The notes: generated from the letters alone by a model not told the origin. 64,000 nucleotides of DNA from Candidatus Latescibacterota bacterium (GCA_965248265.1 CBDFJF010000002.1:1888001-1952000); one strand, 5' to 3'; positions 18,322 to 41,296 are shown, counted from the first letter of the stretch. Made by a program: numbers and translations.

Positions 18322-18349
18322 ACTCACCATAATGCCACTTATCCGTCCT
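18322..18349. other. dif/Xer-like recombination site
   Basis: ACTCACCATAA-TGCCAC-TTATCCGTCCT (11-6-11). Confidence 0.55.
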
Positions 18350-18485
18350 AACCATCTCCGCGAAGCCATGGTCGATTAGGGAGGGATGGACCAACCCGGG
18401 CTCATCGACTACGAGGACGCCCACGCTGATGTGCTCGCCACGTATGAAGTGATGGTGAAGTGATGCCGGCGAACCGGGGGTGCGT

Positions 18486-18640
18486 GCTGACGACGTCCAG
18501 ACCACCTCGTTGCCACTACGGCAGCCTCGAGCAGATGATTCACGCCATCCGCGCCCACCGGCCGTTCGACCTAAATGCCGAGCGCTGGCGGGAGGCGCAC
18601 CCAGGGGCCGACTTCGAGACGTGGCGCCGCCAGGCCCAGC
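18486..18640 (+). pseudogene. N-terminal fragment of a probable alpha/beta hydrolase
   Basis: ...WREAHPGADFETWRRQAQ, cut off by the oriIS-proximal segment. Confidence 0.35.
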
Positions 18641-18692
18641 CTCAAATTTCTGACTCGACAGCATCTCCCAGCCGACATACACTACCCATAAC

Positions 18693-18713
18693 GGCCGTCT
18701 ATAATTCCTATAC
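18693..18713 (+). mobile_element. IS91/ISCR oriIS-like end
   Basis: GGCCGTCTATAATTCCTATAC followed by GTTC, a known IS91 target tetranucleotide. Confidence 0.7.
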
Positions 18714-18815
18714 GTTCATAAAGCTGCCGGCAGTGATGCCCGTTACTGGTCACCACTTTCTGCCTGCACGTCAACTATCCGTGGCCCGTTCAAGACGGCA
18801 ACGAGAGTTCTCGAC

Positions 18816-20024
18816 ATGAAACGTTCTAAGGCTGTGGGCTTGACCGTTGCAGTCGCCTCGGTTCTGGGCACCCTAGCGCTGCTGTTTTTCATATACCTGG
18901 TCAACAGGGCCGTCGAGTCGCCTCACGCCTTTCAGGCCGCGGCGAGCACCAGTGACGCCTGCCGACCCTGTCATCAGTCCCTATACGACAGCTACGTCAA
19001 AACGGGACACTACCTCACGACCACTGTCGCTTCCGAAACGACCGTCATGGGCGACTTCGGCGAAGGCCGCAATGTCGCGCGCACGCCGGTGCCCGAGCTG
19101 CAGTTCGTGATGGAGCGCAAGAGAGGCGGGTTTTATCAAACTGCCATGTACACCAAGGACTCGACACAGACATTCACCCGGCCTATGCAGATCGTGATGG
19201 GCTCCGGAGAGCGGGCACAAACCTACTTGTTCTGGGAGGGTGACAGACTGTTTCAACTGCCCGGGATGTACTTCACGCCGGAAGCGACCTGGACCCCGGG
19301 TCCTGGTTATGAAAACTGGATCGCAACCTGGGAGGCTTTGCCGAAAAAGAGTCCGGGCATGCTGTACCAGCGACCGATCAGCGGACGCTGCATCGAGTGC
19401 CACGCCGCAACGGCAGTACCTGTTGGCGGCCCAGCAAGGTTCCGATTTCGGCCCGCCAGTTTCGAGGTAGGCATCAGCTGCGCGAACTGCCACGGTCCGG
19501 GCGCCCGACATATCGCCTTCCACGAGCAGAATTCGGAAGAGCAAGAGGGCCAACACATCGTCAACCCGGCCAATCTCAGTCGATCGCAACAGATGTCTTC
19601 CTGCGCCCTGTGCCATGCCGGGCAGGGGATTCCAAAAACGCCGCCGCTGTCCTTCCGCCCGGGCGACGAAATCTCACAGCATCTCTTCTACCGGAAAGCG
19701 GAGCAGAAGAAGCTGTCCGTCCACGGCGGGCAGGTGCCATTCCTCCAGGAAAGTCGCTGTTTTGAAGAGTCGGGCGACATGACGTGTTCCACCTGCCACA
19801 ATGTGCACGAAGACCAGACGGACCAGACCGCTATGTTTTCGCGCAAGTGCCTGACCTGTCACGAACAATCCCACACTGAAGAGCCCGAACTAGCGCAGGG
19901 CGACCGCTGCACTCAATGCCACATGCCAGATCAGCAAGCGAGCAATCTGCCGGTGTTCCACGAGGGGGATGAGTGGTTCCTGTCGATGGCCAATCACCGC
20001 ATCGGGATCTTCGAGGACCAATAA
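18816..20024 (+). CDS. Membrane-anchored multiheme c-type cytochrome
   Basis: Seven CxxCH motifs (CRPCH, CIECH, CANCH, CALCH, CSTCH, CLTCH, CTQCH); N-terminal TM helix. Confidence 0.9.
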   Translation: MKRSKAVGLTVAVASVLGTLALLFFIYLVNRAVESPHAFQAAASTSDACRPCHQSLYDSYVKTGHYLTTTVASETTVMGDFGEGRNVARTPVPELQFVMERKRGGFYQTAMYTKDSTQTFTRPMQIVMGSGERAQTYLFWEGDRLFQLPGMYFTPEATWTPGPGYENWIATWEALPKKSPGMLYQRPISGRCIECHAATAVPVGGPARFRFRPASFEVGISCANCHGPGARHIAFHEQNSEEQEGQHIVNPANLSRSQQMSSCALCHAGQGIPKTPPLSFRPGDEISQHLFYRKAEQKKLSVHGGQVPFLQESRCFEESGDMTCSTCHNVHEDQTDQTAMFSRKCLTCHEQSHTEEPELAQGDRCTQCHMPDQQASNLPVFHEGDEWFLSMANHRIGIFEDQ

Positions 20025-20095
20025 CACACCCGAGCTCGTGTCAACGCTGCCGAGTCGGACTGCTGCCCCCGCGGGGCCGCCCTCAAACCCCTGCG

Positions 20096-22423: not shown

Positions 22424-22586
22424 GAGCCTGTCCGAGTATGCGCTTTGATAGGCGAGGGGGCGTCATTGTTGTCGATGGCAAGGCGCGTGAGCGATCTGAA
22501 TTGATGAATTCAGAGAGAGAAACGGAACGCAGACAGCGGCAGCAATGACGCCTCCGCAGCCCAAATGGAATACTCGGACAGGCTCC
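22423..22586. mobile_element. MITE (164 bp) with IS5-like ends
   Basis: Perfect 17-bp TIR GGAGCCTGTCCGAGTAT / ATACTCGGACAGGCTCC with TA on both sides. Confidence 0.85.
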
Positions 22587-22942
22587 TATCCCGTGGCTGG
22601 AGCTGAAGTCCATTGCATTGTGAGCGAACCTTCGAGCTGTCCCACGGCCGTATGCACCATGGGCTCCTGGGGGCGCTGCGGTCAATTTTTTCCTTGAATC
22701 TCCGGGTATTTTTCCATATACTGTTATGATTCAATGGAGAGAGACGAACGCAGGTCATTCACCTATAAAGACCGTAAGTTGTTTATTTACAGCGACTAAT
22801 AAAGAAGCGGTCGGAGTTGGTTCTGCGCAAAATCACCAGTTCCCGTTTTCTCTCGCTCGCTGAAGGACTGGTGCGCTGAAAGGAGGTGTACGACGGAAGC
22901 CCGCATTTCAGACATCGGCAGTAGCAATAGTGATCGTTCGAG

Positions 22943-23021
22943 TAGATTTACAGCAGTCATTTAGATTTACAGCAGTCATTTAGATAGATTTACAGCAGTC
23001 ATTTAGATTTACAGCAGTCAT
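22943..23021 (+). repeat. 19-bp tandem repeat x4
   Basis: TAGATTTACAGCAGTCATT at 22943, 22962, 22985 and 23004, with an extra TAGA before unit 3. Confidence 0.95.
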
Positions 23022-23049
23022 CCTTCCACAGCTAAAAGGAGAAGCGACA

Positions 23050-23952
23050 ATGAAGAAGATCATCATCATGGCTGCAGTTCTGGGCCTGGTGCTCGCCACC
23101 ACTCCAAGTTCAGCCCACGTGCCATCGGATGCCAACTTTGCGGCAGTGATGGTGCCCATCGGCGAGGATGGAGTCCAGGACCTCTCAATTGACGGTTCAC
23201 TCTCCGAGTGGGACAACGTGCCGTCCGCGTTCTGGACCACCCATGATGACCTCGTAGAGATGATCACCGGTACCCAGGGTGACCCGGATGCGGGCAACCT
23301 CGCCGAGCGCATCATCGTCGGCTGGCACCCAGAGACCAACTACCTTTACTTCATGGAGGAAAAGTTCGACCAAGCGTTTTATACGGTCGAAGAAACCAAC
23401 GACAACCTCACCATCGCGATCGATGCGAACCACAGCGGCGGACAGTACTATGGGGAGGCCATAGAGGAGGTAGACTATTCGCGCCAGGCACAGCACTGGA
23501 AGACGGTGTTCAACGCTCCCGACAACCCCATTTTTTTGTGGGGCGGCACGAGTGTGTGGGCCACGGCGGAGCCTTACACCGGTTCCAGATTTATCATTGA
23601 CGGCGAGAACGGTGGCCCCACCACCCTCACGTCGGAGGCTTGGTTCACCCCCTTCGACGACCTGCCCAGCGATTCGACCGGTCCCGACGACGACCGCATA
23701 ATCATCAACGACCTGACGGAAGGCAATATCGTCGGTATCGGCGTAGCCGTTCAGGACGATGACAACGGCCCGAGCGGTGGGTACGACGGCTACTGGGTCT
23801 CCACTGGCGACGTCATCATGTACTACCACGGCGACGCCCTGGTAGACTACGTGCTAGGGGGTTTTAACGCGGCCTTTTGGGTAGCTGGAGAAAACATGAC
23901 AGCGGTCGAGACCGACAGCTGGGCTCGCATCAAAGCGGGCTTCTCCAACTAA
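23050..23952 (+). CDS. Secreted acidic CBM9/DOMON-like protein with C-terminal TAVE..SWARIKA tail
   Basis: Signal peptide; IDGSLSEW, IAID, GIGVAVQDDD motifs; RBS AAGGAG. Confidence 0.75.
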   Translation: MKKIIIMAAVLGLVLATTPSSAHVPSDANFAAVMVPIGEDGVQDLSIDGSLSEWDNVPSAFWTTHDDLVEMITGTQGDPDAGNLAERIIVGWHPETNYLYFMEEKFDQAFYTVEETNDNLTIAIDANHSGGQYYGEAIEEVDYSRQAQHWKTVFNAPDNPIFLWGGTSVWATAEPYTGSRFIIDGENGGPTTLTSEAWFTPFDDLPSDSTGPDDDRIIINDLTEGNIVGIGVAVQDDDNGPSGGYDGYWVSTGDVIMYYHGDALVDYVLGGFNAAFWVAGENMTAVETDSWARIKAGFSN

Positions 23953-23994
23953 GCAGACAGATCGGCTTGTAAGGAGCCAGATCTGGTGTTGTTG

Positions 23995-24039
23995 AAGGGG
24001 GGGGCGAGATCGACGATCCTCGCCCCCCCTTTTTCTTTT
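23995..24039 (+). terminator. Rho-independent terminator
   Basis: GGGGGGGCGAG / CTCGCCCCCCC stem followed by TTTTTCTTTT. Confidence 0.85.
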
Positions 24040-24054
24040 CGGCAGGAGAGAAAA

Positions 24055-26709: not shown

Positions 26710-26711
26710 GA

Positions 26712-28463: not shown

Positions 28464-28516
28464 TCGTCGTACTGATCGTTTCAGAATCACTCGAAGAGAG
28501 GCAGAGGAGGATCTTA

Positions 28517-31228
28517 ATGATGACCGGTCACGCAGTTCGGGTCGCGGTGCGTGCGTCGCGGCCGCTGGCCATCGGTGGCGCCGTCGTCCTGGTACTGGCG
28601 CTGGCCTTCACGCAGGCCGATGCGCAGGGATTCGAGCACGAGCGACTGATGGGCACCCGGAGAGCCGGCGAGCTCACGTTCGAACCGACGGGCCCTGGCG
28701 TCCTGTTCAGCGCTCTGGACCCCGCGGTCAAGAAGTGGTATGTCCCCCAGGAGCTGTTTCACGAGTATCGGTGGAAGCAGTGGGAGCACAGCAACTACGC
28801 GAGGGATCGCTACCAGCGCTATGTAGGCACCAATCTCCAGGGGGACTACTTCTACGACATCTACGGTTCGTACATAACCAGAGGATGGCTGGTCTACGAC
28901 TGGAGCCAGACCCAGCCCGAGCAGGGGGGAAGCAACCTGTTCAAGACCGACAAGTTCAGTGGCTGGTTCAACAATCTGGTCGTGGCCTCCGACCACAAGG
29001 GACAGCACCATCTGGCTGTCACCGTGGGCGACGAGATCCGGTCGACCCTGACCCCGATGACCTTCTCCAAGCCGGCGTTCGACGGCATCCAGATCGACTA
29101 TCAGTCCAACAAGTACGAATTGACGGCGCTTCTCTCTCGCATCAGCTCGCCGGGTATCGCCGCCTCAGCGCGAAGCACCATCAACCAACAGACGAGCTCG
29201 ACGACCCTTACCGGCGGGCGCGCGACCGCCCAGGTTGGAGACTATCTCAAACTCGGCGCCAACTACGTGAACGCCCACAACTCCTCTCAGCTCCTCGATG
29301 CCTTCGAGGGCAGCCCGCGAAGCGGGTCGATCGTCTCCAGTCAGAATTCGGACAACGTCACCCGGGTCTTCGTGCGACTCTCGGACGACTCGCCCGGGGA
29401 CGGCGAAGGTGGCGCCACCCTGTTCGCCTGGGACCTGATCATAGAGGCCGACATCGAGAGGATCGACGAAGAGGGGAATGTGAGTTTCGAGAGAGAGAGT
29501 GTCCGGGCCAGCGAAGTCGGGCTGATCCCCGCGCCCCAGGGCGGCTTTCAGAGGCTCGGGTTCTGGGAGGCCAGCGGCTCCGAGCAGATCGAGCTGGTCT
29601 ACGACTTCTCGGTGGGGACGTACACCGGCCCGGATCCGTCAGAGATAAGAAGGGTGACCATCGAGCTGGTGGTGGCCAATGACTACATGATCGAGACGAC
29701 TTCGGACCGCCAGTTCGACAGGAATTTGGCCAGCGTCTACTTGCTGGCTGCCAGGGCCGATGGAAACGTCAAGGATGGCTCCAACCTGACCGTTCTCAAG
29801 ATCCCGTATGGTCTGCCGACGGCGACCGAGATATTTGGGTTTACGCTGGAGGCGACCCGCCTCTTGGGATTCGACCTCTACGGAGAATGGGACCGCAGCG
29901 TCAGTTACAGGAAGCACCCCAACAGGGCGCACACCAAGCACCTGGGGGGCTCCGACGAAGGCGACGGCTGGATGGTGAATCTGTCGAGAATCGCCCATCC
30001 TTTCTTCCTCTTCGGCGAAGCCTATAGCATGGCCGCCAACTACAACACTTCCGTTATAATGGCCAGGGGCGAAACCAACATAGACTACGCGGACAAGAAC
30101 AGGTTTTTCTACGAGCTCGTCGACGACAACGACGATCAGGACAGGTTCCCCGACTGGCAGAGGTTATTCCAAAGCATAGACATCGCGGTGTTCCCCGGGT
30201 ACGACGAAAACCTCGACTACATATCCGATTTCAACCAGAACGACAGCGTGGATCTTCCCAATCGCGTCCCGGACTACGACGAGCCTTTTCTGCGATACGG
30301 AACAGACAGGCCGGATTACCTGTTCGGCATTGACATGAACAACAACCTCTGGGTGGATCGGTTCGAAAACGACGATGAACCGGATTTCCCCTACCCCAGG
30401 GACCACGAGGGATACAACATCTACGGCGGTGTCAACGTGCTTCCCGGCATCAGGCTCACCGTCGGACGAACGGATGAGAAATTGATCGCCGGCGAGGGGG
30501 AAAACAAGACCCACTACATGCTCTTCGTCCTGGAACAGGACTACCCGGGTCTCGGAAGGCTGAAGATCTTCGAGAACATGAGAATCGCCAAGGACACCAT
30601 ACCGAACGGTCTTCGCCAGTGGAGCGAGCTCGAGCGGCGGAACCTTCCAACCGGCGATCCCCTGGCGGCAAAGGACACGTGGATAAACTCCACGTTCATG
30701 AGCTTCAAGTACACGGCGATCGAGGATGTGAACTTCGTGAGTAAACTCAAATATGATCGCTGGCACCAGCGCACAGACCAGGCCGATCTGCGGGAGAACT
30801 TCACCTTCTTCGGTCTCATCAACAAGGTGGACCTCGAGCACAAGATCGCCCATGTCGATCTTATGCCGAGAATAAAGAACGAGCTCAGGCTCGAGTCTCC
30901 GCCGGGCAAATTCGATGCCAAGCGCAGGGAAGACACGGTGCAGCTCTCCCTGCTGGCGCGATGGCCGGTGCTCGCCTCCTCCTCCGTCCAGGCCGGCGTC
31001 GAGTACTCGATCTTCAACCAGCTGCGCAAATCCGAGACCGCGATCAGGGAGGGACTGCTCGACGATTTCACCGAGATCGTCACAGCGCTCCAGTTCTCGA
31101 ACGTCACCGACTACCTGGGTTACCGCCTGGCGACGAAGATGGGTATGAGATTTACCAGAAGATCGATAGATGACGAGACCGAGACGGGCAGAGTGGCCTT
31201 TGCCACGATGTATGCCGGTCTGGAATAA
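28517..31228 (+). CDS. Large exported hypothetical protein, possible outer-membrane beta-barrel with Asp-rich loops
   Basis: RBS GGAGG, signal peptide, amphipathic beta-like segments, DDNDDQD / DENLD / DMNNN motifs; the ORF-track start at 27728 overlaps the upstream gene. Confidence 0.75.
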   Translation: MMTGHAVRVAVRASRPLAIGGAVVLVLALAFTQADAQGFEHERLMGTRRAGELTFEPTGPGVLFSALDPAVKKWYVPQELFHEYRWKQWEHSNYARDRYQRYVGTNLQGDYFYDIYGSYITRGWLVYDWSQTQPEQGGSNLFKTDKFSGWFNNLVVASDHKGQHHLAVTVGDEIRSTLTPMTFSKPAFDGIQIDYQSNKYELTALLSRISSPGIAASARSTINQQTSSTTLTGGRATAQVGDYLKLGANYVNAHNSSQLLDAFEGSPRSGSIVSSQNSDNVTRVFVRLSDDSPGDGEGGATLFAWDLIIEADIERIDEEGNVSFERESVRASEVGLIPAPQGGFQRLGFWEASGSEQIELVYDFSVGTYTGPDPSEIRRVTIELVVANDYMIETTSDRQFDRNLASVYLLAARADGNVKDGSNLTVLKIPYGLPTATEIFGFTLEATRLLGFDLYGEWDRSVSYRKHPNRAHTKHLGGSDEGDGWMVNLSRIAHPFFLFGEAYSMAANYNTSVIMARGETNIDYADKNRFFYELVDDNDDQDRFPDWQRLFQSIDIAVFPGYDENLDYISDFNQNDSVDLPNRVPDYDEPFLRYGTDRPDYLFGIDMNNNLWVDRFENDDEPDFPYPRDHEGYNIYGGVNVLPGIRLTVGRTDEKLIAGEGENKTHYMLFVLEQDYPGLGRLKIFENMRIAKDTIPNGLRQWSELERRNLPTGDPLAAKDTWINSTFMSFKYTAIEDVNFVSKLKYDRWHQRTDQADLRENFTFFGLINKVDLEHKIAHVDLMPRIKNELRLESPPGKFDAKRREDTVQLSLLARWPVLASSSVQAGVEYSIFNQLRKSETAIREGLLDDFTEIVTALQFSNVTDYLGYRLATKMGMRFTRRSIDDETETGRVAFATMYAGLE

Positions 31229-31247
31229 GGGGAGTACGAACGGGACA

Positions 31248-32915
31248 ATGACGAGCTTGAATCTCTCTCTCTCCTGCGGAAGGCCAGGCGGCTCATTACT
31301 GGCTCTGCTGGTGGTTTGCGCGGGCTGCGCGCTCGAGGATGATTCGATCGCCCGAGTCGGCGACCGGGCGATCACGGCTCAGGATGTGCGGGCCTTCATC
31401 GACAAACTGCCCGCAGACGCCAGTGGCGAAGAGGCCGGAAAGGAGCAGCTGAGAGACCATCTGCAGACCATCATCGACTTTGAGCTGATGCTGATGGAAG
31501 CCCGAAGGCAGGGCATCGACAGGAGTTCCGCCTACCTGACCAGGATGGACCAGATCAGGAAGGCGAAGCTCGTCGGCGGGTACGAGGGAAAGTTTATCGA
31601 CACAACGCCACGAGAGGGCGAAGTAGAGGAGTACATAGAGCGGGAGAACCTCACGCGCGCCATCAAACTGGCCGACATCCTGGTGGCCGACCTCGAGACG
31701 GCTGAGCAGGCTGTGAGGGAGATCGAGTCAGGGGCGAGTTTCGCCGACGTCGCCAGGAAGCTGTCGCTGAACAAGCGGACGGCTGCCCGGGGCGGGGACT
31801 CGGGCCGTTTCGGGACCAGGGACCAGATGCTTCCCTTCGTCCCTGAGGAGCTGTTCGGACTCGAGGTAGGCTCGGTGTCAGATCCGGTGCGAATGGGGAA
31901 ACACTACGCCGTCTTCAAGATCCTCGATGACACGACGGCTCAGCTCAATCGGGGGCAGTTGAGGAAGATCGCCGAAGACCTTCAGAGAGAGAAATACAGA
32001 GTCGCGAAAGCCGAGCTGGTGGCTGAACTGACCGATCAATACAGCCTCGAGCCGGTGCCAGAAGGCATCGCCGCCTGCGTCGAGGCACTGCGCGCCGGCG
32101 CGGGGAACCTCGGCCACGACCCGTCCGCGATCGTCCTCTTCAGGTACGACGGCGGAGAGGTCACAGCTGTCGACCTGATCGTCGCGGCCAGAGGTCGCAA
32201 GGGTACCGTCCTGGAGTCATTCCGAGACCCTGAGCAGGTGGTCTCCTTTGCCGAGGAGAACATCATCCCGGACAAGATGATTCAGGAGGCGGCCGTGCGC
32301 CTGGGCATCGATCGTGAAGAGGCTATGGTTCAATGGCTCGAACAGCACGGGAAGCAGACATTGGCTGAAGCTCTCAGGTCCTCCGTGTTGAGGGAGAAAG
32401 TGAATATAACCGAAGACGACCTGCGCCAGTACTACGAGGCCAACTCTCATCGACTACTGCATCCCGAACAAACAGAAGTACAGGAGATCCTGGTGGGTAC
32501 GGAAGCAGAAGCCCTGCGCTTGAAAGGGATGATCGAAGATGGCGCCACGTTCGGTGACCTGGCGAAGGGACATTCTATCCGGTCGCTGGAGGTGCGTGAT
32601 GACGAAGGCGTATTCCACGTGCACCGCCACGAATCGCCCCGGTTCGGCGGTTTCGTGGAAGCTACTGTAGAGGCCGAAATCGGCGCGCTCATCGGACCGG
32701 TCAAGGTGCAAGAGGGCTACTCCCTCTTCAAGGTGCTGTCCCGGGAACGCAAGCGCGAGACCTTCGACGAGGCTGAGATGAGGGTCAGGTCCGAATTGAC
32801 ACGCAAGAGACGCCGCGACGCGTTCAACGAGTCCATGGAAGAGCTGCGCAGCCGCTACGAGTCAGAGGTGGCGATTCACGAGGACAGGCTCGAAGCTGCG
32901 TTTACCGTGCAGTAG
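31248..32915 (+). CDS. SurA/PrsA-like parvulin PPIase with two rotamase domains
   Basis: ILV...GASFADVARKLS...GGDSG and ILV...GATFGDLAKGHS; lipobox-like CAGC. Confidence 0.87.
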   Translation: MTSLNLSLSCGRPGGSLLALLVVCAGCALEDDSIARVGDRAITAQDVRAFIDKLPADASGEEAGKEQLRDHLQTIIDFELMLMEARRQGIDRSSAYLTRMDQIRKAKLVGGYEGKFIDTTPREGEVEEYIERENLTRAIKLADILVADLETAEQAVREIESGASFADVARKLSLNKRTAARGGDSGRFGTRDQMLPFVPEELFGLEVGSVSDPVRMGKHYAVFKILDDTTAQLNRGQLRKIAEDLQREKYRVAKAELVAELTDQYSLEPVPEGIAACVEALRAGAGNLGHDPSAIVLFRYDGGEVTAVDLIVAARGRKGTVLESFRDPEQVVSFAEENIIPDKMIQEAAVRLGIDREEAMVQWLEQHGKQTLAEALRSSVLREKVNITEDDLRQYYEANSHRLLHPEQTEVQEILVGTEAEALRLKGMIEDGATFGDLAKGHSIRSLEVRDDEGVFHVHRHESPRFGGFVEATVEAEIGALIGPVKVQEGYSLFKVLSRERKRETFDEAEMRVRSELTRKRRRDAFNESMEELRSRYESEVAIHEDRLEAAFTVQ

Positions 32916-32925
32916 GGGCGATTCC
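32898..32925 (+). repeat. 28-bp direct repeat R1
   Basis: GCGTTTACCGTGCAGTAGGGGCGATTCC; copies at 40988 and 43651. Confidence 0.9.
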
Positions 32926-33063
32926 CCTTCCTGGAAACGGGCTCGCAAGCGTCCATCGACCGGCTCGCAGGCCCTGATCCACCCCCAATGCACACGCCCA
33001 TCGTGACCTGCACCCATCCCGCCGCTCACCACCCCTCTCGACACGATTCCGCCGCCGACCTAG

Positions 33064-33091
33064 AGTAATCATAATTGCGGTTATCGGTCTA
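33064..33091. other. dif/Xer-like recombination site
   Basis: AGTAATCATAA-TTGCGG-TTATCGGTCTA. Confidence 0.55.
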
Positions 33092-33148
33092 TACATAAGC
33101 ACAGCGTCAATCCACACATCCAAGTCCTCACCTTCGCTGGAGTCTACA

Positions 33149-34651
33149 ATGTCTAGGTTGTTCTTGCGCAGATTTATGACCGCCATTTGTGTGGTTAACT
33201 GCGTCTGTCTTGTATCCATTGCCGCCGAGCCGGTGGACATCGGCTCGCACCGCGAGCTATTCGTCGATGACCATTTTGTCGAGAGGATCGAGGGCGATGC
33301 GCGGCTTGAATTGCAGCGGCCGGTGCCGCGGGATGTGGCGCTGGTCGCCGACGCGCCGTGGGAGGGAAACACCAGTATGTACTACACGCTGTTTCGTGAC
33401 AAAGATGCTTCCGGCGAGGACATCTGCCGCATGTACTACCGCGGCGCGAACTACGACCTGGAGAAGCGCACCGGGACGCACAACCAGGTGGTCTGCTATG
33501 CCGAGAGCAAGGACGCCATCCACTGGACGAAGCCGAATCTGGGGCTAGTCGAATTCGAGGGCTCGAAAGAGAACAACATTGTGTGGGACGGTGCCGGCGC
33601 CCACTGCTTTGCTCCCTTCAAGGACACCAATCCGAACTGCCCACCCGGGTCCCGCTACAAGGCACTCTCGCAGGTCCACAAGAGCGGCAGGCCCCATCAT
33701 GGGGTGCAAGGCGAAATGACCGTCTTCGCCTACAAGTCGCCCGACGGCCTCCGGTGGACGATCAGCGACGGCCCGCTGATCACCAAGGGGGACTTCGATT
33801 CGCAGAACCTGGCCTTCTGGGATCCGCATGCCGGACTATACCGCGAATACCACCGCGTCCGCTTTTTTCAAGATCCAAGCGGAGAGCTTGTCTTGGGCGG
33901 CATACGCGCTCGTCCGGGATTCCGGTCCATCATGACCTCCACGTCGAGCGACTTTTTGAATTGGGTGACCTGGACCGAGCCGGAGCTGCTGGAATTCGAC
34001 GATGACATCGGCCCGGAGCACCTGTACACGAACGCGGTGATGTCGTACCCCCGTGCGCCGCAGATCCTGATCGGCTTCCCCACCCGACTGCTTCCCGAGC
34101 AGAACAACCGCGTGGAGCCGATCCTGATGACCAGCCGCGACGGACGCAGGTTCAAGCGGTGGCCCGACCCGGTGATTCCCGAGGACGCGCCGGAGGAACG
34201 GGCCGGCAACCGCAGCAACTACATGGCCTGGGGGCTCCTGCCCACCCCGGGCAACGACCGCGAGTACTCGGTTTACGCCTCCGAAAACTACCTCTCCACG
34301 ACCCCCACCCGGCTACGGCGTTTCACGTACCGCCTCGACGGATTCGTGGCGCTGCGCGGCGGCGCGGATGGCGGCCAGCTCACCACGAGGCCGCTGTTGG
34401 TGGGCGGCGGGAAGCTGGAGATCAACTATGTGACCCGGCCCGGCGGCCACGTGCGGGTGGGGATCGAGGACGCCGACGGCCAGCCGCTGGCCAACTTTTC
34501 AGCCGCAGACTGCGACCCGCTCGAGGGCGACCAGATCGCAAAGCTCGTCACCTGGAAGAGTGATGGGCAGGGTCCGTTTCCCGGAAGGCCAGTGCGGGTG
34601 CGGTTTGAGGTCAAAGACGCGGAGGTGTATTCGTTTCGGTTCAAGAATTGA
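33149..34651 (+). CDS. Secreted beta-propeller glycosidase-like protein
   Basis: Signal peptide; RELFVDD, YAESKDAIHW.KP.LG, FDSQN, SRDG, RLDGFV. Confidence 0.8.
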   Translation: MSRLFLRRFMTAICVVNCVCLVSIAAEPVDIGSHRELFVDDHFVERIEGDARLELQRPVPRDVALVADAPWEGNTSMYYTLFRDKDASGEDICRMYYRGANYDLEKRTGTHNQVVCYAESKDAIHWTKPNLGLVEFEGSKENNIVWDGAGAHCFAPFKDTNPNCPPGSRYKALSQVHKSGRPHHGVQGEMTVFAYKSPDGLRWTISDGPLITKGDFDSQNLAFWDPHAGLYREYHRVRFFQDPSGELVLGGIRARPGFRSIMTSTSSDFLNWVTWTEPELLEFDDDIGPEHLYTNAVMSYPRAPQILIGFPTRLLPEQNNRVEPILMTSRDGRRFKRWPDPVIPEDAPEERAGNRSNYMAWGLLPTPGNDREYSVYASENYLSTTPTRLRRFTYRLDGFVALRGGADGGQLTTRPLLVGGGKLEINYVTRPGGHVRVGIEDADGQPLANFSAADCDPLEGDQIAKLVTWKSDGQGPFPGRPVRVRFEVKDAEVYSFRFKN

Positions 34652-34773
34652 GCGAGGTTTCTTGAAAGGGTACAGCGCCGCCTGCGTGGCCGCCCTTGCC
34701 CGGGCGCGCCGAGCGGCGATTCTTGAAAGGCACGGCAGATTCCCGACGCACCGTCCGAAAGGAGATAGCTCAC

Positions 34774-36813
34774 ATGAAGAAGGCAATGCTTGTCATTGTG
34801 GCGGTGCTTGTAGTAGCGCTCGCTATGCTGTTTTCCTGCGGCCAGAAAGAGAGCCACACACCCACCGGCGAGCAGGACGCGGCGGGGACCGAGGTGTCCA
34901 CTGCGGTGTCCACCAACGAGCTCGGAAAGGTCGTGAACAAGAGCTACGAGTTCGTGGATCCCAGGACCGGGGATGCGGGAACGGTCGAGATCGAGCGCTT
35001 TCAGGCTTCTCCCGTGTGGAAGGAAATGGTCGAGGCCGGCAAGCTCCCACCCATAGACGAGCGATTGCCTGAAGAGCCCCTGGTCATCAAGCCGATCGAG
35101 AGCATCGGCAAGTACGGCGGCTGGATGGTAAATCTGAGAACCGCCCAGCGCCGTTCCTGGTCAAGAGGCTTGCAGTATGAGTGGCTGGTCAATTGGACCT
35201 ATCCCTACTTCGAGCGCCTGAACCCCAACGTGGCCAAGGGTTGGGAAGTCTCGCCGGACGCGCGAAAGGTGACTTTCTTCCTGCGCAAAGGCATGAAGTG
35301 GAGCGACGGAACGCCCTTCACCGCCGACGCGATCACCTGGTGGTTCGACCACATCGTCCTCAACGACGAGCTCTACCCAACCAAACCGGGGCGTTTCCTG
35401 ACCAGAGGGAACCTGCCCACCGTCCGCAAGCTCAATGAAACCACGGTCGAGTTCGCGTTCACGGATCCCTACCCGATGTTCGTGGAGAACATGGCCCGGT
35501 GCCGGCCCATGTCGTACGCACCCGGACATTATCTAGAAGAGTTCCATCCCGACTTTGCCGGGAAGGAAGACATAGAGAAGATGATGGTGGAAGGCGGCTT
35601 CGACATCTGGGCCGACTTCTTCCGCAGCAAGTGGGACTTCTACAGCAATCCCGATATGCCCACCATCAGCGGCTGGAAGGCGATCAACTACCAGGAGGAA
35701 GTGATCTTCAAGGTCGAGCGCAATCCCTACTACTGGAAGGTCGACACCGAGGGTAAGCAGCTGCCCTACGCAGACGGCATGGAATACGCTTTGGTGCAAA
35801 ACGCCGAGACATGGCTCTTGCAACTGATGGCGGGTGAGCTCACCTGGGCTTTCGGCAGCTCAATTGGCGGATTGGCCAACCTGCCGCTCGTGATGCAGAA
35901 CCAGGAAAGGGGCAACTACCGGATCGTGACCCCATATTGGCCCCCCAACAACGTCTGCACCACGTACTTCAATTTCGCCAATGCTGATCCCGCAAAGAGG
36001 AAGATCATCAACGACCGGAAGTTCCGTCTCGCCCTGCTCAAGGCCATCAACTGGGAGGAGGTGAACGAGATCATTTACGACGGCGGCGCCCTGCCGACGT
36101 GGCCGCGATCGGTGGCGCCGTACGATCCGGATAGTCCTCTGTTCCAGACCCACATCGGCCGGGACATCAGCGAGGCCAATCGGCTACTGGATGAGATGGG
36201 TCTGACGGCCAAGGACAGCGACGGCTTCCGGCTAGGCCCGGACGGGAACGAGCTCATCTTCGTGACGGTTACCATGACCAACTCGCCCCCAGAGGCCGCC
36301 GAGGTCGCTGAGCTCTATCGCGGGTACTGGGGGGAAGTGGGCATCAGGACCGTGGTCAAGTCGCAGAGCCCCCAGTTCGTCACGGAGATGATGCAGGCGG
36401 GTGAGTACGATCTTCACCTGCGCTGGGGGGCCCCGGGCGGGCGTCCCATGAACGTCTTCACTCGCGGGCAGTTGCTTCCCATCAATGCTTGGTGGTTGGT
36501 TTGCCCCCCGTGGGGCGAGTGGACGTCCAGCGGGGGCAAGAAAGGTGAGGAGCCGCCGGAGTACGTCAAGCGGCTCCACGCGATCTACGAAGAAGGCATG
36601 GTCGAGCCGTCGGAGGCGAAGCGCAAGGATCTCGTCATGGAAGCATTTGAGATTTACGTTGACCATCTCCTGATGCTTCCGGGATTCGAAGCGAAGCGAG
36701 CCACGTACACCGCGGTGACGAAATCGCTGCGGAACTTCAGTGTGGGCGACGAGCCGTATGGGACAACGGAGTTCGCCATTGTTCCCTCGCAGACCTTCTA
36801 TTTCGACGACTAG
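34774..36813 (+). CDS. ABC transporter substrate-binding lipoprotein (family 5)
   Basis: Lipobox LFSC; GKLPPIDERLP, IGKYGG, LRKGMKWSDG.PFTA, ERNPYYWKVDTEG.QLPY. Confidence 0.93.
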   Translation: MKKAMLVIVAVLVVALAMLFSCGQKESHTPTGEQDAAGTEVSTAVSTNELGKVVNKSYEFVDPRTGDAGTVEIERFQASPVWKEMVEAGKLPPIDERLPEEPLVIKPIESIGKYGGWMVNLRTAQRRSWSRGLQYEWLVNWTYPYFERLNPNVAKGWEVSPDARKVTFFLRKGMKWSDGTPFTADAITWWFDHIVLNDELYPTKPGRFLTRGNLPTVRKLNETTVEFAFTDPYPMFVENMARCRPMSYAPGHYLEEFHPDFAGKEDIEKMMVEGGFDIWADFFRSKWDFYSNPDMPTISGWKAINYQEEVIFKVERNPYYWKVDTEGKQLPYADGMEYALVQNAETWLLQLMAGELTWAFGSSIGGLANLPLVMQNQERGNYRIVTPYWPPNNVCTTYFNFANADPAKRKIINDRKFRLALLKAINWEEVNEIIYDGGALPTWPRSVAPYDPDSPLFQTHIGRDISEANRLLDEMGLTAKDSDGFRLGPDGNELIFVTVTMTNSPPEAAEVAELYRGYWGEVGIRTVVKSQSPQFVTEMMQAGEYDLHLRWGAPGGRPMNVFTRGQLLPINAWWLVCPPWGEWTSSGGKKGEEPPEYVKRLHAIYEEGMVEPSEAKRKDLVMEAFEIYVDHLLMLPGFEAKRATYTAVTKSLRNFSVGDEPYGTTEFAIVPSQTFYFDD

Positions 36814-36831
36814 ACGGGGACAGCCTTTGTC

Positions 36832-37818
36832 ATGTTACGCTTCATAGGCCGTCGTTTGCTCCTGATGGTGCCCACGCTGATCGCCATCTCCATGCTCTCG
36901 TTCCTCATCATCCAGCTTCCACCCGGTGACTATCTTTCCTTTTACGTGGCCAATCTATCTCAGCAAGGGGAGGAAATAGACGAAGCTGAATTGGAGGCCA
37001 TCAAAGCCCGTTATGGCCTCGATCAACCCATGCCGCTGCAGTACCTGACATGGCTGTGGGGATTCATCCGCGGAGACATGGGCAGGTCGATGCAGTGGGG
37101 AGCGCCAGTGGAGAGCCTCATCGCCGACCGACTCCCCATGAGCATGGCCATCTCGCTTGCCTCGTTGATATTCGTCTACCTCGTGGCCATACCCATCGGG
37201 ACGTATTCCGCGACTCATCAGTACTCAATTGGCGACTACGTCTTCACGACGGTCGGTTTCATCGGATTGGCCATTCCGAACTTCTTCCTGGCGCTGGTTC
37301 TGCTCTACTACTACTACGTGGCCACTGGAGACGTCCTGGTGGGATTCTTCTCCAGAGCCTACCAGGATGCGCCGTGGAGCTTCGCCAGGCTGTGGGACAT
37401 GATGAAGCACCTGTGGCTGCCCACTGTGGTGGTAGGCACCGCCGGTACCTGCGGCCTCATTCGTGTGATGCGGGCCAATCTGCTCGACGAACTGCAGAAG
37501 CCGTACGTCATGGTCGCTCGGTCCAAAGGGCTTTCGAGACGACGCGTGCTGTACAAGTATCCCTTCCGCATGGCGATCAATCCCATGATCAGTACCATCG
37601 GGTGGATGCTCCCCACCCTGTTCGGGGGCGAGCTCCTCGTGTCGATGGTGCTCAACATTCCCACGATTTCTCCGTTGTTCGTGGGCGCGCTTCTGAGCCA
37701 GGATATGTTCCTCGCCGGATCAATCGTGATGATCGTCAGCTCGTTGACGGTGATCGGGACGCTCATATCCGATATCGCCCTGGGGTGGGTGGACCCCCGT
37801 ATCCGGGAGGCCGTGTAG
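36832..37818 (+). CDS. ABC transporter permease (OppB-like)
   Basis: IIQLPPGDY, ARSKGL loop, DPRIR end. Confidence 0.95.
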   Translation: MLRFIGRRLLLMVPTLIAISMLSFLIIQLPPGDYLSFYVANLSQQGEEIDEAELEAIKARYGLDQPMPLQYLTWLWGFIRGDMGRSMQWGAPVESLIADRLPMSMAISLASLIFVYLVAIPIGTYSATHQYSIGDYVFTTVGFIGLAIPNFFLALVLLYYYYVATGDVLVGFFSRAYQDAPWSFARLWDMMKHLWLPTVVVGTAGTCGLIRVMRANLLDELQKPYVMVARSKGLSRRRVLYKYPFRMAINPMISTIGWMLPTLFGGELLVSMVLNIPTISPLFVGALLSQDMFLAGSIVMIVSSLTVIGTLISDIALGWVDPRIREAV

Positions 37819-37819
37819 G

Positions 37820-38932
37820 GTGAAGGGGAAGAAGAATACAACTGGGGATCGCCTGCTGGTCGCTTCGCAATGGCAGCTCATTCGCTGGAAGTTCTTCCGG
37901 CACAAGCTCGCCGTGGGAGCGCTTGTTGTTCTTGGTTTCCTCTATTTCGGGGCCATCTTCGCAGAGTTCGTGGCGCCCATGGATCCGACACAGATCAATG
38001 CCAGGCGCAAGCTCTGCCCGCAGACGAAGATCCACTTCAGTGACGAGAATGGCCTACACCTGCGGCCGTTTGTCTATGGTCTCACCCACACCAAGGATCC
38101 CGAGACGTTGCTGAGGACCTACTCCGAGGACAAGAGTGTCACCTATCGGATACGTTTTTTCGTTTCCTCCTCGGAGTACAAGCTGTGGGGCCTGTTCCGG
38201 AGCAACATCCATCTCTTCGGGGTTGAAGAAGGCGGTGAACTCTTCTTGTTGGGAACGGACCTGTATGGTCGGGACCTGTTTTCCCGCATCATCTACGGTT
38301 CCAGAATATCGCTATCCATAGGGCTCGTCGGCATCGCCGTCAGCTTCGTCCTCGGGGTGTTGATCGGCGGCGTCTCCGGCTACGTCGGCGGAACCGTGGA
38401 CGTGGTGATTCAACGCGTCATCGAGTTCATCAAGTCCATTCCGACCCTGCCGTTGTGGATGGGGCTGAGTGTAGCTCTCCCGCCACACTGGTCCATGATC
38501 AAGGTCTATTTCGGTATCGTGATCATTCTTTCTCTGATCGGGTGGCCGGATCTTGCCCGGGTGGTGCGCGGCAAGTTCATGGCCCTGCGGGAAGAGGATT
38601 TCGTCATGGCTGCTCGATTGCACGGAGCAGGGCAGCTCAAGATCATCCTGAAACACATGCTGCCTTCATTCTACAGCCACATCATCGCCTCGTTGACTCT
38701 CTCGGTGCCAGGGATGATTCTGGGTGAGAGCGCGTTGAGTTTCATAGGCCTGGGGCTGCAGGCGCCGGCCATAAGTTGGGGGGTGCTTCTGCAACAGGGG
38801 CAGGCTATCCGGGTATTGGCAAACGCGCCTTGGCTCATGCTCCCGGGGTTGTGGATCATCGTAACGATCATGGCGTTCAATTTCGTCGGCGACGGGTTGC
38901 GGGATGCGGCCGACCCGTATGCCACGGTGTGA
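37820..38932 (+). CDS. ABC transporter permease (OppC-like)
   Basis: LGTDLYGRDLFSRIIYG, ESALSFIGLG, GDGLRDAADP. Confidence 0.95.
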   Translation: MKGKKNTTGDRLLVASQWQLIRWKFFRHKLAVGALVVLGFLYFGAIFAEFVAPMDPTQINARRKLCPQTKIHFSDENGLHLRPFVYGLTHTKDPETLLRTYSEDKSVTYRIRFFVSSSEYKLWGLFRSNIHLFGVEEGGELFLLGTDLYGRDLFSRIIYGSRISLSIGLVGIAVSFVLGVLIGGVSGYVGGTVDVVIQRVIEFIKSIPTLPLWMGLSVALPPHWSMIKVYFGIVIILSLIGWPDLARVVRGKFMALREEDFVMAARLHGAGQLKIILKHMLPSFYSHIIASLTLSVPGMILGESALSFIGLGLQAPAISWGVLLQQGQAIRVLANAPWLMLPGLWIIVTIMAFNFVGDGLRDAADPYATV

Positions 38933-38943
38933 GGAATTTCGAT

Positions 38944-39948
38944 ATGCGCTGCCAAGGGGATGATCATTTACTCAGAGTTGTCAACCTGGGGACCCATTTC
39001 TTCTCCCGGGAAGGGACTGTCCGGGCTGTAGATGGCGTGGACTTCGCACTCAGACGAGGACAGACCCTGGGCATCGTCGGTGAGAGTGGGTGTGGCAAGA
39101 GCGTTACGGCGCAGTCCATTCTGCGGATCGTGCCAAAGAACGGCGAGATCGTCACTGGACAGATACTTCTGAAGACGGCAGACGAGGTCGTGGATCTGGC
39201 GCAGCTCGATCCCGAAGGGGATGAGATTCGCGCCATCCAGGGCAAGGAAGTCGCCATGATCTTCCAGGAGCCCATGACATCGTTTTGCCCGGTGTACACC
39301 ATCGGCAATCAGATTACCGAAGTGATCCAGCTTCATCAGGAGGCCACAAAGGGCGAGGCTCACGAGCGGGCCCTGGACATACTACGTCAGGTCAGTATGC
39401 CCAATCCTGAACAGGCCATCGATGCCTATCCCTTCAATCTCAGTGGCGGCATGCGCCAGAGAGCCATGATCGCCATGGCGTTATCGTGCCGTCCCAGCCT
39501 GCTCATCGCCGACGAACCCACCACAGCCGTGGATGTCACGATTCAGGCCCAAGTGCTCGATCTGATTTCCAAACTCCAGCGGGAGCTGGGCATGGCTGTC
39601 ATCCTCATAACCCACGATCTGGGAGTCGTCGGTGACCTGGCAGATGAGGTGTTGGTCATGTATCTGGGAAGAAACGTGGAGTGCGCCGAGGCCCGCCAGC
39701 TCTTCCGCGATCCCAAGCACCCCTACACCCAGGGGCTCCTGGCATCCATACCCAAGCTCGGTGAAGGCGGGCGCAAGATAGAGCCTATTTCCGGTTCGGT
39801 GCCGAGCGTCTACGAGATGCCGAAAGGATGCAGATTTCATCCCCGTTGCCCCGAGTTCATCAGTGGTGTGTGCGACGAGCGGGAGCCGCCCTCTGTGGAG
39901 ACGGAGCCGCGTCACTTTGTGAGTTGCTGGCTCTACGCGGACAGGTAG
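38944..39948 (+). CDS. ABC transporter ATP-binding protein (OppD-like)
   Basis: [30 protein letters not shown]. Confidence 0.95.
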
Positions 39949-39954
39949 GATGGT

Positions 39955-40983
39955 ATGAACAACAGAGTCCTTCTTCGAGTAGAGGATCTAAAGAAGCACT
40001 TCGTTCGAACGCACGGCCTGCGGAGAAAGGTAACGGGGATAGTGAAGGCCGTCGACGGCGTCAGCCTCCACATACGCTCAGGGGAGACCCTCGCTCTGGT
40101 GGGGGAAAGCGGTAGCGGCAAGACCACCCTGGGCCGATCGGTGCTGCGGGCGATAGAGCCGACATCCGATTCCATTACCTATCACCTGAAAGACGACGAG
40201 CCCATCGATTTCATGGCTCTGGACATGACAGAATTGAAGGAGATACGCCGGCACCTGTCCATGGTATTTCAGGATCCTTACTCCTCCCTCAACCCTCGGA
40301 TGAGTGTGCTGGACATCGTGGGGGAACCCCTCATCAATTACGGTGTGATGAGGCGCAAGGAGCAGATCCAGGAACGAGTAGCCGAGCTCCTGCGCATGGT
40401 CCGATTGGACCCGGAGTACATGGGCAGATATCCCCACGCCTTCAGCGGCGGACAACGCCAGAGAATCGCGATTGCTCGTGCCCTGTCGTTGGATCCGCAA
40501 TTCATCGTGCTCGACGAGCCGGTTTCGGCCCTCGATGTGTCGGTGCAGGCCCAAGTGCTGAATCTGCTCAAGGAGCTCCAGGACGAGCTCAACCTGACGT
40601 ATCTGTTCATCGCGCACGATCTCGCCGCGATCGAGTACGTGAGCAGCCGCGTGGCGGTAATGTATGTTGGCCGGATCGTGGAGATGTCGGCGACCGAGGA
40701 AGTCTTCAGAAGTCCCCGTCACCCATATACGGAAGCGCTCTTGTCCGCCGTTCCGAAAGGGGATCCGGACAACAGAAGCGAGCGGATTGTCCTGGAAGGT
40801 GATGTGGCCGACCCCGCCAATCCGCCGTCGGGCTGCTACTTCCATCCTCGGTGCCGCTATGCCGAGGCCATTTGCCGAGAGCGCACGCCGCCGCTGATTG
40901 ATGTGGGCGCCCCGCACGAGGCCGAGCATTTGGCAGCGTGTCATTTCGCCGAAGAGCTCAAGCTGGCCGGCGTTGGTGGGTGA
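39955..40983 (+). CDS. ABC transporter ATP-binding protein (OppF-like)
   Basis: [25 protein letters not shown]. Confidence 0.95.
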
Positions 40984-40987
40984 GGCG

Positions 40988-41015
40988 GCGTTTACCGTGC
41001 AGTGGGGGCGATTCC
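40988..41015 (+). repeat. 28-bp direct repeat R2
   Basis: GCGTTTACCGTGCAGTGGGGGCGATTCC, starting 5 bp after the ABC operon stop. Confidence 0.9.
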
Positions 41016-41268
41016 GGCGCCGATCTGAACCGTTTATGGGCCCATTTTTCTCGCGACTACTGTGAACTCTAAAGTGACCTTTCTCACCTGACCAACGCCA
41101 TCTTGCGCGTTTCGATGAATTCCTTTCCCGCCTGTAGCCGATATACATACACGCCAGCGAATCGGCTGAAATCCATGCCTCGCACGCCTCCTCACGCACC
41201 CACGACAGCTATCGTACCCAATCCACACGGGAAAACAGCGCCTCGACAGGCCAGCGTCGGTTCACCAT

Positions 41269-41296
41269 AGTCACGATAATACCTTTTATCTTTCCT
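41269..41296. other. dif/Xer-like recombination site
   Basis: AGTCACGATAA-TACCTT-TTATCTTTCCT. Confidence 0.55.

Follow-up and report, generated by a model that had tools for sequence, protein, structure and literature searches.

Dif-like sites at gene-module junctions of a Latescibacterota chromosome: probable oriIS-side ends of ISCR/IS91-type transposons

A stretch of 64,000 nucleotides from the genome of a Candidatus Latescibacterota bacterium, here called the window, carries three short sites which resemble the dif sites of XerC/XerD recombinases and lie at the junctions of gene modules. A first-pass annotation, made from the sequence alone, had noticed these sites and proposed that a Xer-type system accretes catabolic modules at them. 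What kind of sites are these, and which machinery made the junctions? Our analysis indicates that they are most likely the conserved oriIS-side ends of ISCR/IS91-type rolling-circle transposons, present as "solo ends" without a transposase gene. The window comprises C2:1888001-1952000 of the genome under study (G000), which was compared with the relatives G002, G008, G016, G017, and G018. The assembly has a size of 7.32 Mb in two contigs, C1 and C2. The contig ends overlap at both sides (9.7 kb and 2.4 kb), which closes the chromosome into a single circle. Positions without a contig name are those of the window, and the features are collected in Table 1.

The sequences and coordinates of the three 28-mers, with their 11-6-11 geometry, are exactly as first annotated. 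Sites 1 to 3 have the format of dif, i.e., 28 bp with two 11-bp arms, a 6-bp centre and the inner ends ATAA and TTAT, and they share one orientation, with the better-conserved arm first and the ...CCT arm second. None of them lies within a Pfam-supported open reading frame (ORF), in accordance with their reported placement outside intact genes, and the next long co-oriented ORF starts 57 bp after site 2 and 71 bp after site 3, as had been stated. ATAA-N6-TTAT occurs three times in the window, compared to a mean of 0.10 in 100 dinucleotide-preserving shuffles, none of which reached three; the earlier rough estimate of about 0.1 chance hits per 64 kb was accurate. The common orientation holds, too, while the number of sites rises to five once spacers of 7 nt are permitted, which adds the sites at 18681 and 43603 (site 4). 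The 18681 unit lies 106 bp ahead of a multihaem cytochrome gene (18816). Site 4 is degenerate and from mid-spacer on identical to a site at C2:2428500; its right arm had been taken for an inverted single arm at 43621, and it is not inverted.

Further single arms of the first-pass annotation did not prove to be sites. Those at 4293 and 10028 belong to two copies of one repeat (4248-4315 and 9983-10050) around TCGTCCGATAA; their flanks agree in 45 bases or more, and neither has a second arm that convinces. At 47161 and 60944, nothing is conserved outside the arm itself.

The window sites belong to a genome-wide family. ATAA-N6-TTAT has 67 matches in the genome, most with extended arms in common. 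28-mers were also scored against ACTAACGATAA-N6-TTATCGTTAGT over 22 arm positions, and sites scoring at least 16/22 number 68 in the genome compared to 3 in a Markov simulation of equal length. 55 of these 68 sites are intergenic, though about 88% of the genome lies within crude gene calls.

What surrounds the 28-mer in these copies reveals its context. Each window site is part of a block of approximately 140-200 bp, and these blocks share homology with the oriIS side, i.e., the 3' flank, of ISCR/IS91-type transposase genes that are full length. The genome contains 16 Y2_Tnp matches, four of which are full length. One full-length transposase (L029:16384-17835) scores 99.7 bits with Y2_Tnp PF04986 (cut-off 20.9) and 69 bits with Zn_Tnp_IS91 PF14319 (cut-off 26.3), and the transposases align end to end with the NCBIfam model of ISCR clade Ia (positions 18-484 of 509; 374-378 bits). 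Full-length copies show the order transposase gene, leader of about 190 bp, site of 28/29 bp, 6-bp tail AWNCRY, and unrelated DNA. Along this line, the transposase gene C2:1842384-1843835 is followed by a 7-nt-spacer site 190 bp past its stop codon. Remnant 2 of the window is 77-78% identical over approximately 160 bp to the 3' flank of this gene and its copies, and 86% identical to C1:1464655-1464802; the right arm and tail of its site correspond to the L2 type TTATCGGTCCT-ATACGT minus 1 nt, i.e., with a 1-nt deletion. For remnant 1, the stretch 18215-18353 has at least 12 further copies of leader and site in the genome, at 69-78% identity, and one of them, at C2:1827492, retains a 3' coding remnant of a Y2 transposase gene to its left.

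The outer boundary of these blocks is fixed. Subfamilies were defined with the conserved arm oriented first, and subfamily B consists of nine near-identical copies, seven of which are arrayed at C2:1134276-1156234, with co-oriented sites 1-6 kb apart and unrelated genes between them. These copies have 70-510 bp in common on the transposase side, which is the 3' end of a Y2_Tnp gene, and similarity is gone about 6 bp past the site. A complete element of 2,101 bp lies at C2:1158328-1156228, and abutted oriIS and terIS tips are present at C2:1134270/1134269 (...TTATCCTCACT-AAGCGC/GG-AAGCGC-TGG..., with the slash between the tips). AAGCGC marks both ends of the 2,101-bp element as well as the abutted junction. 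All subfamilies end with the 6-bp AWNCRY tail, beyond which the copies diverge. Furthermore, leader, right arm and tail co-segregate by subfamily, which we take to mean that they descend as one block, with no sign of shuffled arms. Distinct ends, an invariant oriIS-side boundary beside variable DNA, and the lack of inverted terminal repeats are all ISCR-like.

The same arrangement extends to the relatives. G018 has 40 Y2 matches, mostly 3' fragments, and G008, which belongs to another genus, shows a Y2 3' fragment followed by a site, in addition to an array of four units in direct repeat. Across five relatives, Y2 copy number and the count of strict-pattern sites show no clear relation.

By analogy with IS91, new junctions would be made by HUH/Y2 cleavage at the tip of the element, past the tail. 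The ends would then act like the "common region" of ISCR1, as a mobile end which abuts, and probably drives, captured genes. The sites are thus not autonomous borders of Xer cassettes, as the first-pass annotation had them, since they sit inside oriIS-side blocks and homology ends 6 bp outside of them.

The counterpart which the element end resembles lies at the chromosomal terminus. The only perfect palindrome of the family, ACTAACGATAA-CAAGAA-TTATCGTTAGT (C2:3484647-3484674), lies 1.7 kb from the cumulative G-C maximum (C2:3486365), with the skew minimum opposite (C1:2962341). It is located 256 bp upstream of the gene of a 345-aa tyrosine recombinase (PF00589 and SAM_1), and mutL adjoins. 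Orthologues of this recombinase in G002, G008, G016, and G018 are 64-68% identical, each with a near-palindromic site 130-190 bp upstream. Loci from the whole phylum were gathered via protein alignment of the recombinase: 49 of the 56 Latescibacterota loci with enough upstream DNA have a site of at least 16/22 upstream of the recombinase gene, compared to none of 48 downstream controls. Across the phylum the distance between recombinase gene and dif is 60-415 bp, the dif is near-palindromic and located at the terminus, and the catalytic residues R...K...HxxR...H...Y of the linked recombinases are conserved. Palindrome and gene are therefore, as judged by position and conservation, a candidate for the dif of the phylum with its linked Xer-like recombinase, where one or two recombinases may act. 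The linked protein stays below the curated cut-offs of XerS (69.5/267 bits), XerA (100.7/220), XerC (119.5/335) and XerD (114.6/330), and its nearest solved structure is XerD 1a0p (E 2.4e-11). A second, XerD-like protein of the genome reaches 267.6 bits compared to a cut-off of 329.6. The genome thus encodes more than one Xer-type protein rather than a single one. Given the missed cut-offs and the separate XerD-like protein, a two-recombinase system is possible.

The window lies approximately 1.56 Mb from this dif, and its sites agree with the terminus palindrome at 15-17 of the 22 arm positions; the term "dif-like" is therefore correct in a strict sense, and the earlier comparison with dif is substantiated by a site conserved across the phylum. 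Within the family, the conserved arm is up to 11/11 identical to the arm of the terminus dif. No element sits at dif at present, its flanks being the recombinase gene and mutL. A prophage integrated at dif was considered and rejected, as the cluster in question (C2:3430611-3431488) lies 53 kb off and recombinase gene and mutL flank dif tightly. Another recombinase of 301 aa is encoded at C1:1754213-1755118 on the minus strand (L025:1213-2118) and scores 239.6/265 bits with the integron-integrase model and 207.3/220 bits with XerA.

Dif-type sites also occur elsewhere in the genome and beyond it. In prophage- or island-like regions they split series of small ORFs, and homology between such clusters breaks at the sites. 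Here arm 1 contains in-frame stops (TAAcgaTAA) and arm 2 overlaps ribosome-binding site (RBS) and start codon (...GGAGT-caacgg-ATG); a gene for a 386-aa integrase adjoins one of the clusters. Six viral contigs from IMG/VR (L111-L116) carry a palindrome of the type ACTAACGATAA-N6-TTATCG..AGT. Five of the six have 27-34% G+C and therefore do not come from the 60% G+C lineage, and by tblastn none of the six encodes the dif-linked recombinase. The ACTAACGATAA-type motif may be a dif type common to more lineages.

Passages of PMC13181058 describe imperfect subterminal palindromes in oriIS of the IS91 family, related motifs at terIS and beside oriIS, and a match between target and cleavage motifs. 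The 28-mer is located where such a palindrome is expected, yet its arms lack covariation. In 52 distinct sites, 355 of 572 cells (62%) pair between the arms. The shuffle mean is 366.7, and this count is equalled or exceeded in 490 of 500 shuffles; at positions 2-7, pairing is seen in 29-52% of the sites. Conservation is strong in arm 1 and limited to TTAT and the final bases in arm 2. The orientation rule favours arm 1 by construction, while the pairing test is unaffected by it. The missing covariation speaks against the hairpin model, and the pattern of conservation is the one expected of a recombinase site whose arms differ in strength, rather than of a stem that is kept paired. Spacer sequence is free to vary among the sites. 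The host centre CAAGAA is absent from the mobile sites of G000, and TGCCnT or TACCTT, which are near the phylum-typical dif centres TGCCTG/TACCTG, are frequent among them. The site copies the host dif, with one near-identical arm, a degenerate second arm and a spacer like that of the phylum's dif.

A second property of these ends is a promoter-like motif which points outward. Leaders of the window type contain TCGACA, 17-18 non-conserved bases and TA[AG]A[CG]T, the last three bases of this hexamer being bases 1-3 of the site. The exact layout is found at 12 of 107 sites with a score of at least 15, all of the window type and including sites 1 and 2; among 20000 random positions it occurs 3 times. 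The motif of site 3 is a near variant. A full-length element carries TCGACA-N16-TAAACT, and an independent promoter scan called the motif at sites 2 and 3. A same-strand ORF of more than 200 aa starts within the 700 bp scanned in 13 of 16 window-type units, which is a loose criterion at 60% G+C. The window-type leader probably carries a sigma-70-like promoter whose -10 box overlaps the first three site bases and which would read from the element into adjoining genes. The site's own GATAAT as -10 box, and a TTGAC just upstream as -35 box, were discarded on account of unsuitable spacings. The first-pass annotation had named, as contrary to a Xer reading, an operator with conserved spacer at a fixed promoter position: a fixed position relative to the promoter-like motif does exist, while the spacer is not conserved.

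We now turn to the junctions themselves. In G017, only 57 bp separate the counterparts of the window stretches 29000-32875 and 43677-45330, so that the PPIase and ASPIC genes, which are convergent, almost touch; this empty locus contains no dif-like site. In G016, the same flanks (83-84% identity) enclose a single ORF of 1716 aa, again without a dif-like site. With the flanks close together in G017 and another ORF between them in G016, the window from approximately 32.9 to 43.65 kb is an insertion; with relatives only 65-84% identical, its borders are approximate. Its order is repeat 1, leader and site 2, cargo 1, repeat 2, leader and site 3, cargo 2, site 4, and repeat 3. Both cargo blocks are bounded by dif-like sites, cargo 1 by those at 33064 and 41269 and cargo 2 by those at 41269 and 43603. 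Cargo block 1 is missing from this locus in G017 and G016, and the stretch of cargo block 2 has a low G+C content of 0.51-0.54 compared to about 0.60. The flanks of site 1 show no synteny with G016 or G017, apart from one 127-bp piece.

Public sequencing runs provide independent evidence. The data were Logan contigs, and the 24 runs listed include no RNA run; such contigs are short and mixed with relatives, and uncovered parts as well as short joints with sides of 20-35 letters are uninformative. In run X23, an independent sample, a 2588-bp contig matches only 41295-43593, with 9 differences, and has unlike sequence on both sides. The module edges are the outer edge of site 3 and a point 10 nt short of site 4, so both spacers are excluded. 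For another contig of this run, the break falls on the left edge of leader 2 (32940). To judge by these edges, the N,N-dimethylformamidase (DMFase) block probably moves as a unit, with edges at the outer site borders and not in the spacers. Among these short and mixed Logan contigs, none joins one site directly to another. Insertion relative to G017 and G016 and the other context in X23 together support the position of the sites at module junctions.

Several observations weigh against solo ISCR/IS91-type ends as the explanation of this locus. No window site has a transposase gene beside it, and the link consists in the homology of the 140-200-bp blocks alone. The transposases miss the NCBIfam cut-offs, with 374-378/925 bits for ISCR_clade_Ia (an "exception" model) and 103-106/125 bits for transpos_IS91. 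The match between terIS and oriIS hexamers concerns one element and one junction only. A promoter scan of the 11-kb island totals 5 matches compared to 4.8 expected, and therefore the promoter case rests on conservation across diverged copies. The dif-type arm occurs in prophage-like clusters which lack a Y2 transposase, so the motif is not exclusive to ISCR-like transposons. Finally, three repeats of 28-34 bp frame the cargo blocks; they derive from the 3' terminus of ASPIC and are not a known product of IS91-type insertion, for which passages of PMC13181058 state that no target duplication arises. The repeats may represent an att-like duplication of integrase type, or duplicated flanks like those of ISCR1. 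ISCR1 is flanked by duplicated copies of the 3'-conserved segment (3'-CS), to which the topology of the ASPIC repeats is only loosely similar. A general layout of direct repeat, end, cargo, and direct repeat was abandoned, as a k-mer search round the 68 sites found a non-leader repeat only at site 3, and a presumed second example at C2:1827492 proved to be two transposase-gene remnants.

In our judgement, the best-surviving alternative is nevertheless unlikely: cassette accretion by Xer of the pdif-module type, or by integrative mobile elements exploiting Xer (IMEX), in which circles with one site are inserted and excised by host Xer through crossover in the 6-bp spacer, and the ISCR-like leader is a mere vehicle that first supplied the site. 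One arm which mimics the host dif, and a spacer which does so loosely, would be expected from it, as would the missing hairpin covariation, the aberrant spacers (7 nt, 11 nt, and a 2-nt insertion) and co-oriented arrays such as C2:1134276-1156234. The array in G008 (C1:5655216-5664817, units at L030:5216, 10350, 12345, and 14817) is a further point in its favour. The four units are identical over approximately 330 columns save five leader columns, which form two haplotypes, and three adjacent spacer columns. Spacers are CGGTCT or CGGGTA, all four combinations of haplotype and spacer are present, and the dif of G008 itself has CGGGTA at its centre. Homologous recombination could reassort these alleles, but it leaves the dif-identical centre unexplained. 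A mobile element with a dif mimic has a precedent in LME-1/XerL (PMC9765430).

Against Xer as the accreting machinery, homology between copies stops at the fixed point 6 bp outside the site instead of in the spacer, and leader, right arm, and tail co-segregate by subfamily. The DMFase module of X23 leaves out both spacers, the empty locus of G017 offers no dif-like target, the island is framed by another repeat, and every site is a direct repeat. Two "half-sites", once considered as proof of spacer crossover, proved to be complete: in the "left half" at C1:1464802 the right arm follows an 11-nt spacer, and the "right half" at 43621 belongs to the degenerate full site at 43603 with its 7-nt spacer. 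Fixed outer boundary, co-segregation of arm and leader, module edges in X23 and sites in direct orientation throughout speak against Xer action, and Xer is improbable as the maker of the window junctions. Thus, of the proposed gene accretion, the dif-likeness and the position at junctions of acquired DNA are retained, and the Xer-type crossover is opposed by the boundary, the absence of arm shuffling, and the direct repeats. As regards an IS91-associated recombinase, which the first-pass annotation had invoked, none is associated with the ISCR-like transposons, and all 18 PF00589 matches of the genome fall outside the window.

Still less probable is a promoter with operator only. A transcription factor which acts on a mobile promoter would then bind the 28-mer, and the likeness to dif would be incidental or due to a regulator of similar specificity. 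Its position fits, since it is fixed relative to the conserved -35/-10 pair and would span about +1 to +25, co-oriented genes lie downstream, and the overlap of arm 2 with RBS and start codon in the prophage-like clusters would suit a regulatory role. The exact promoter layout, however, is confined to the 12 of 107 sites, and the transposase-linked subfamily B has no convincing one. Moreover, an arm identical at up to 11/11 positions to a terminus dif that is conserved with its recombinase gene across the phylum, and a spacer as free as in recombinase sites, speak against it. Chance palindromes and an assembly artefact are refuted by the counts in window and genome, and by a 4450-bp contig which covers 39252-43701 with zero differences (from the probable source run, holding 94% of the sampled words).

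The ISCR/IS91-type end, which we favour, leaves a role for the dif mimic. The site may be bound by the host Xer-like recombinase or recombinases, a proposition that we regard as about evenly poised. Once bound, they could resolve circular intermediates of transposition or bring about their integration; alternatively, the site could serve them as an operator at the outward promoter. A bolder idea, to which we give some credit though less than even, is that an ISCR-like lineage built a working dif copy into its oriIS end and so coupled HUH gene capture to the host Xer-like recombinase. Double-stranded circles from rolling-circle excision would then be inserted, resolved, or exchanged by Xer, which would leave dif-identical spacer alleles as in G008, and the bound recombinase could also gate the outward promoter of captured genes. 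The titles and abstracts retrieved on IS91/ISCR with dif or Xer report no such HUH-Xer hybrid mobility.

Table 1. Features of the window and related loci of the genome
Feature	Position	Strand	Remarks
IS110-family transposase fragment	6971-7783		
Y2 (ISCR/IS91-type) transposase gene fragment, 260 bp	11562..11821	+	C2:1899562-1899821; 89.7% to gene of copy at C2:1156228-1158328
oriIS-end remnant 1	18215..18355	+	leader L1, site 1, tail AACCAT
Promoter-like motif TCGACA-N18-TAAACT	18295..18324	+	-10 box ends on site 1 bases 1-3
Site 1, ACTCACCATAA-TGCCAC-TTATCCGTCCT	18322..18349	+	16/22 arm positions vs dif palindrome
18681 unit: TCGACA-N17-TACACT, site ACTACCCATAA-CGGCCGT-CTATAATTCCT, tail ATACGT	18655..18715	+	site 18681-18709, 7-nt spacer
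Direct repeat copy 1 (GCGTTTACCGTGCAGTAGGGGCGATTCC...)	32898..32931	+	copy of ASPIC gene 3' end; gives PPIase gene its stop codon
oriIS-end remnant 2	32932..33097	+	leader L2, site 2, tail
Promoter-like motif TCGACA-N17-TAGAGT	33038..33066	+	ahead of site 2
Site 2, AGTAATCATAA-TTGCGG-TTATCGGTCTA	33064..33091	+	
Cargo block 1	33149..40983	+	500-aa protein without Pfam match, then Opp/Dpp-type ABC transporter (SBP_bac_5, two permeases, two ATPases)
Direct repeat copy 2	40988..41015	+	
Promoter-like motif TCGACA-N17-CATAGT	41243..41271	+	site 3, near variant of layout
Site 3, AGTCACGATAA-TACCTT-TTATCTTTCCT	41269..41296	+	17/22 vs dif palindrome
Cargo block 2	41368..43545	+	N,N-dimethylformamidase beta-subunit-like protein (DMFA2_C)
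Site 4, degenerate, ACTTTCTTTAG-CTACTGC-TTATCGTGCCT, tail AACCGT	43603..43637	+	7-nt spacer
Direct repeat copy 3, native ASPIC 3' end	43651..43684	+	ASPIC gene 43655..45409, minus strand; also in G016
Dif-linked recombinase gene	L007:5353-6390	-	palindrome at L007:6647-6674
Prophage/island-like cluster	C1:27438-30058		L003:3438-6058; duplicate C1:1594522-1598748
Prophage/island-like cluster	C1:675820-677959		
Prophage/island-like cluster	C1:786782-787593		
Prophage/island-like cluster	L006:6611-7515		

Other observations concern the sites and the neighbouring genes. An IS110-family element of approximately 1.6 kb (C2:2689528-2691150; L028:528-2150), which encodes a 424-aa DEDD transposase above the Pfam cut-offs, is inserted at one position (directly after ...CGAT) in the conserved arm of three dif-like sites, the others being at C2:2387199 and C2:2659180; C2:2759505 shows a possible 8-bp footprint of it. 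To judge by these insertion points, it is a site-specific insertion sequence (IS) which targets the dif mimic. The 500-aa gene of cargo block 1 has a paralogue with 85% DNA identity at C1:991882-993304, and an inverted 146-bp copy (98%) of its 3' end (34513-34658) is found at 9651-9796. Further along the window lie a flagellin gene and a DUF6772 gene (59688-60842, minus strand; 52187-53011), and large proteins without Pfam match are encoded at 178-2856, 47275-49971, 50066-52132, and 56189-58834.

The system is best filed as a variant of the ISCR/IS91 type, distinguished by the dif mimic and the probable outward promoter in its oriIS end, with a candidate dif/Xer unit as a by-product. It would explain why metabolic blocks, i.e., an oligopeptide-type ABC transporter, a dimethylformamidase-like enzyme and cytochromes, are found behind a shared mobile promoter. 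It would add a gene-capture system to a phylum known only from metagenomes and take the idea of the ISCR "common region" far past clinical Proteobacteria. The recombinase gene linked to a near-palindromic dif provides a candidate system of chromosome-dimer resolution for the Latescibacterota. If the dif mimic is functional, HUH rolling-circle and Xer machineries, which are usually studied apart, would be joined, and the chromosome would offer a natural case for the tolerance of extra dif-like sites. Targeting of the sites by the IS110-family element would be a second layer of site-specific mobility.

Among known systems, ISCR elements come closest. Both have a Y2 transposase with a zinc-binding N-terminal domain, and the best curated model for the transposases described here is ISCR clade Ia. 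According to passages of PMC6218425, the oriIS region of ISCR1 measures 232 bp and contains two outward promoters, which were verified by experiment; the genes beyond it vary, are co-oriented and start at a distance of 0-1211 bp. Likewise, an oriIS region of approximately 190-230 bp follows the gene in the present elements and has an invariant outer boundary against variable co-oriented genes, and where ISCR1 has its outward promoters, a conserved promoter-like motif is found here. Many truncated copies keep the oriIS side only, as is the case for ISCR. Unlike ISCR, the oriIS end holds a 28-bp mimic of the host dif, which the titles and abstracts retrieved on IS91/ISCR with dif or Xer do not report; the arms of the mimic are not kept as a palindrome or hairpin; the curated NCBIfam cut-offs are not reached; and the host belongs to an uncultured environmental phylum with metabolic cargo instead of antibiotic resistance.

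The pdif modules of Acinetobacter are similar in that several 28-bp dif-like sites with one good and one degenerate arm lie between discrete gene modules. In both cases an insertion sequence targets the sites, of IS110 type here and of the IS1202 family on Acinetobacter pdif (PMC10132070). In contrast to these modules, the present sites are chromosomal and not on plasmids, each is located within a larger transposon end, and the junctions lie outside the site. In Acinetobacter, C and D modules alternate and their flanking sites have opposite orientation (cf. PMC13141974), whereas all five window sites and the arrays at C2:1.13 Mb and in G008 are direct repeats. With IMEX and other dif mimics, such as CTX and TLC phages, the gonococcal island and Legionella LME-1 with XerL, our elements have in common that the host dif is copied on mobile DNA. 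As in the LME-1/XerL work (PMC9765430), the mimic led to the host dif and to a recombinase gene not earlier tied to dif. Unlike IMEX, the present elements are spread over the chromosome instead of being integrated at dif, from which the window is 1.56 Mb away, and they have their own HUH transposase; their integration by Xer is a possibility.

Concerning the host system, dif predictions exist for Bacteroidetes, Chlorobi, and Gemmatimonadetes (passages of PMC3025954), and titles and abstracts on Latescibacterota with Xer or dif describe no dif-recombinase unit, all Latescibacter-Xer matches being ecological. In XerS/difSL and XerH/difH, the recombinase gene is linked to dif, as it is here, and PMC2731167 provides the precedent for such a linked unit. 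Unlike those systems, the protein of the Latescibacterota misses the curated cut-offs of XerS, XerA, XerC, and XerD, and a separate XerD-like gene is present.

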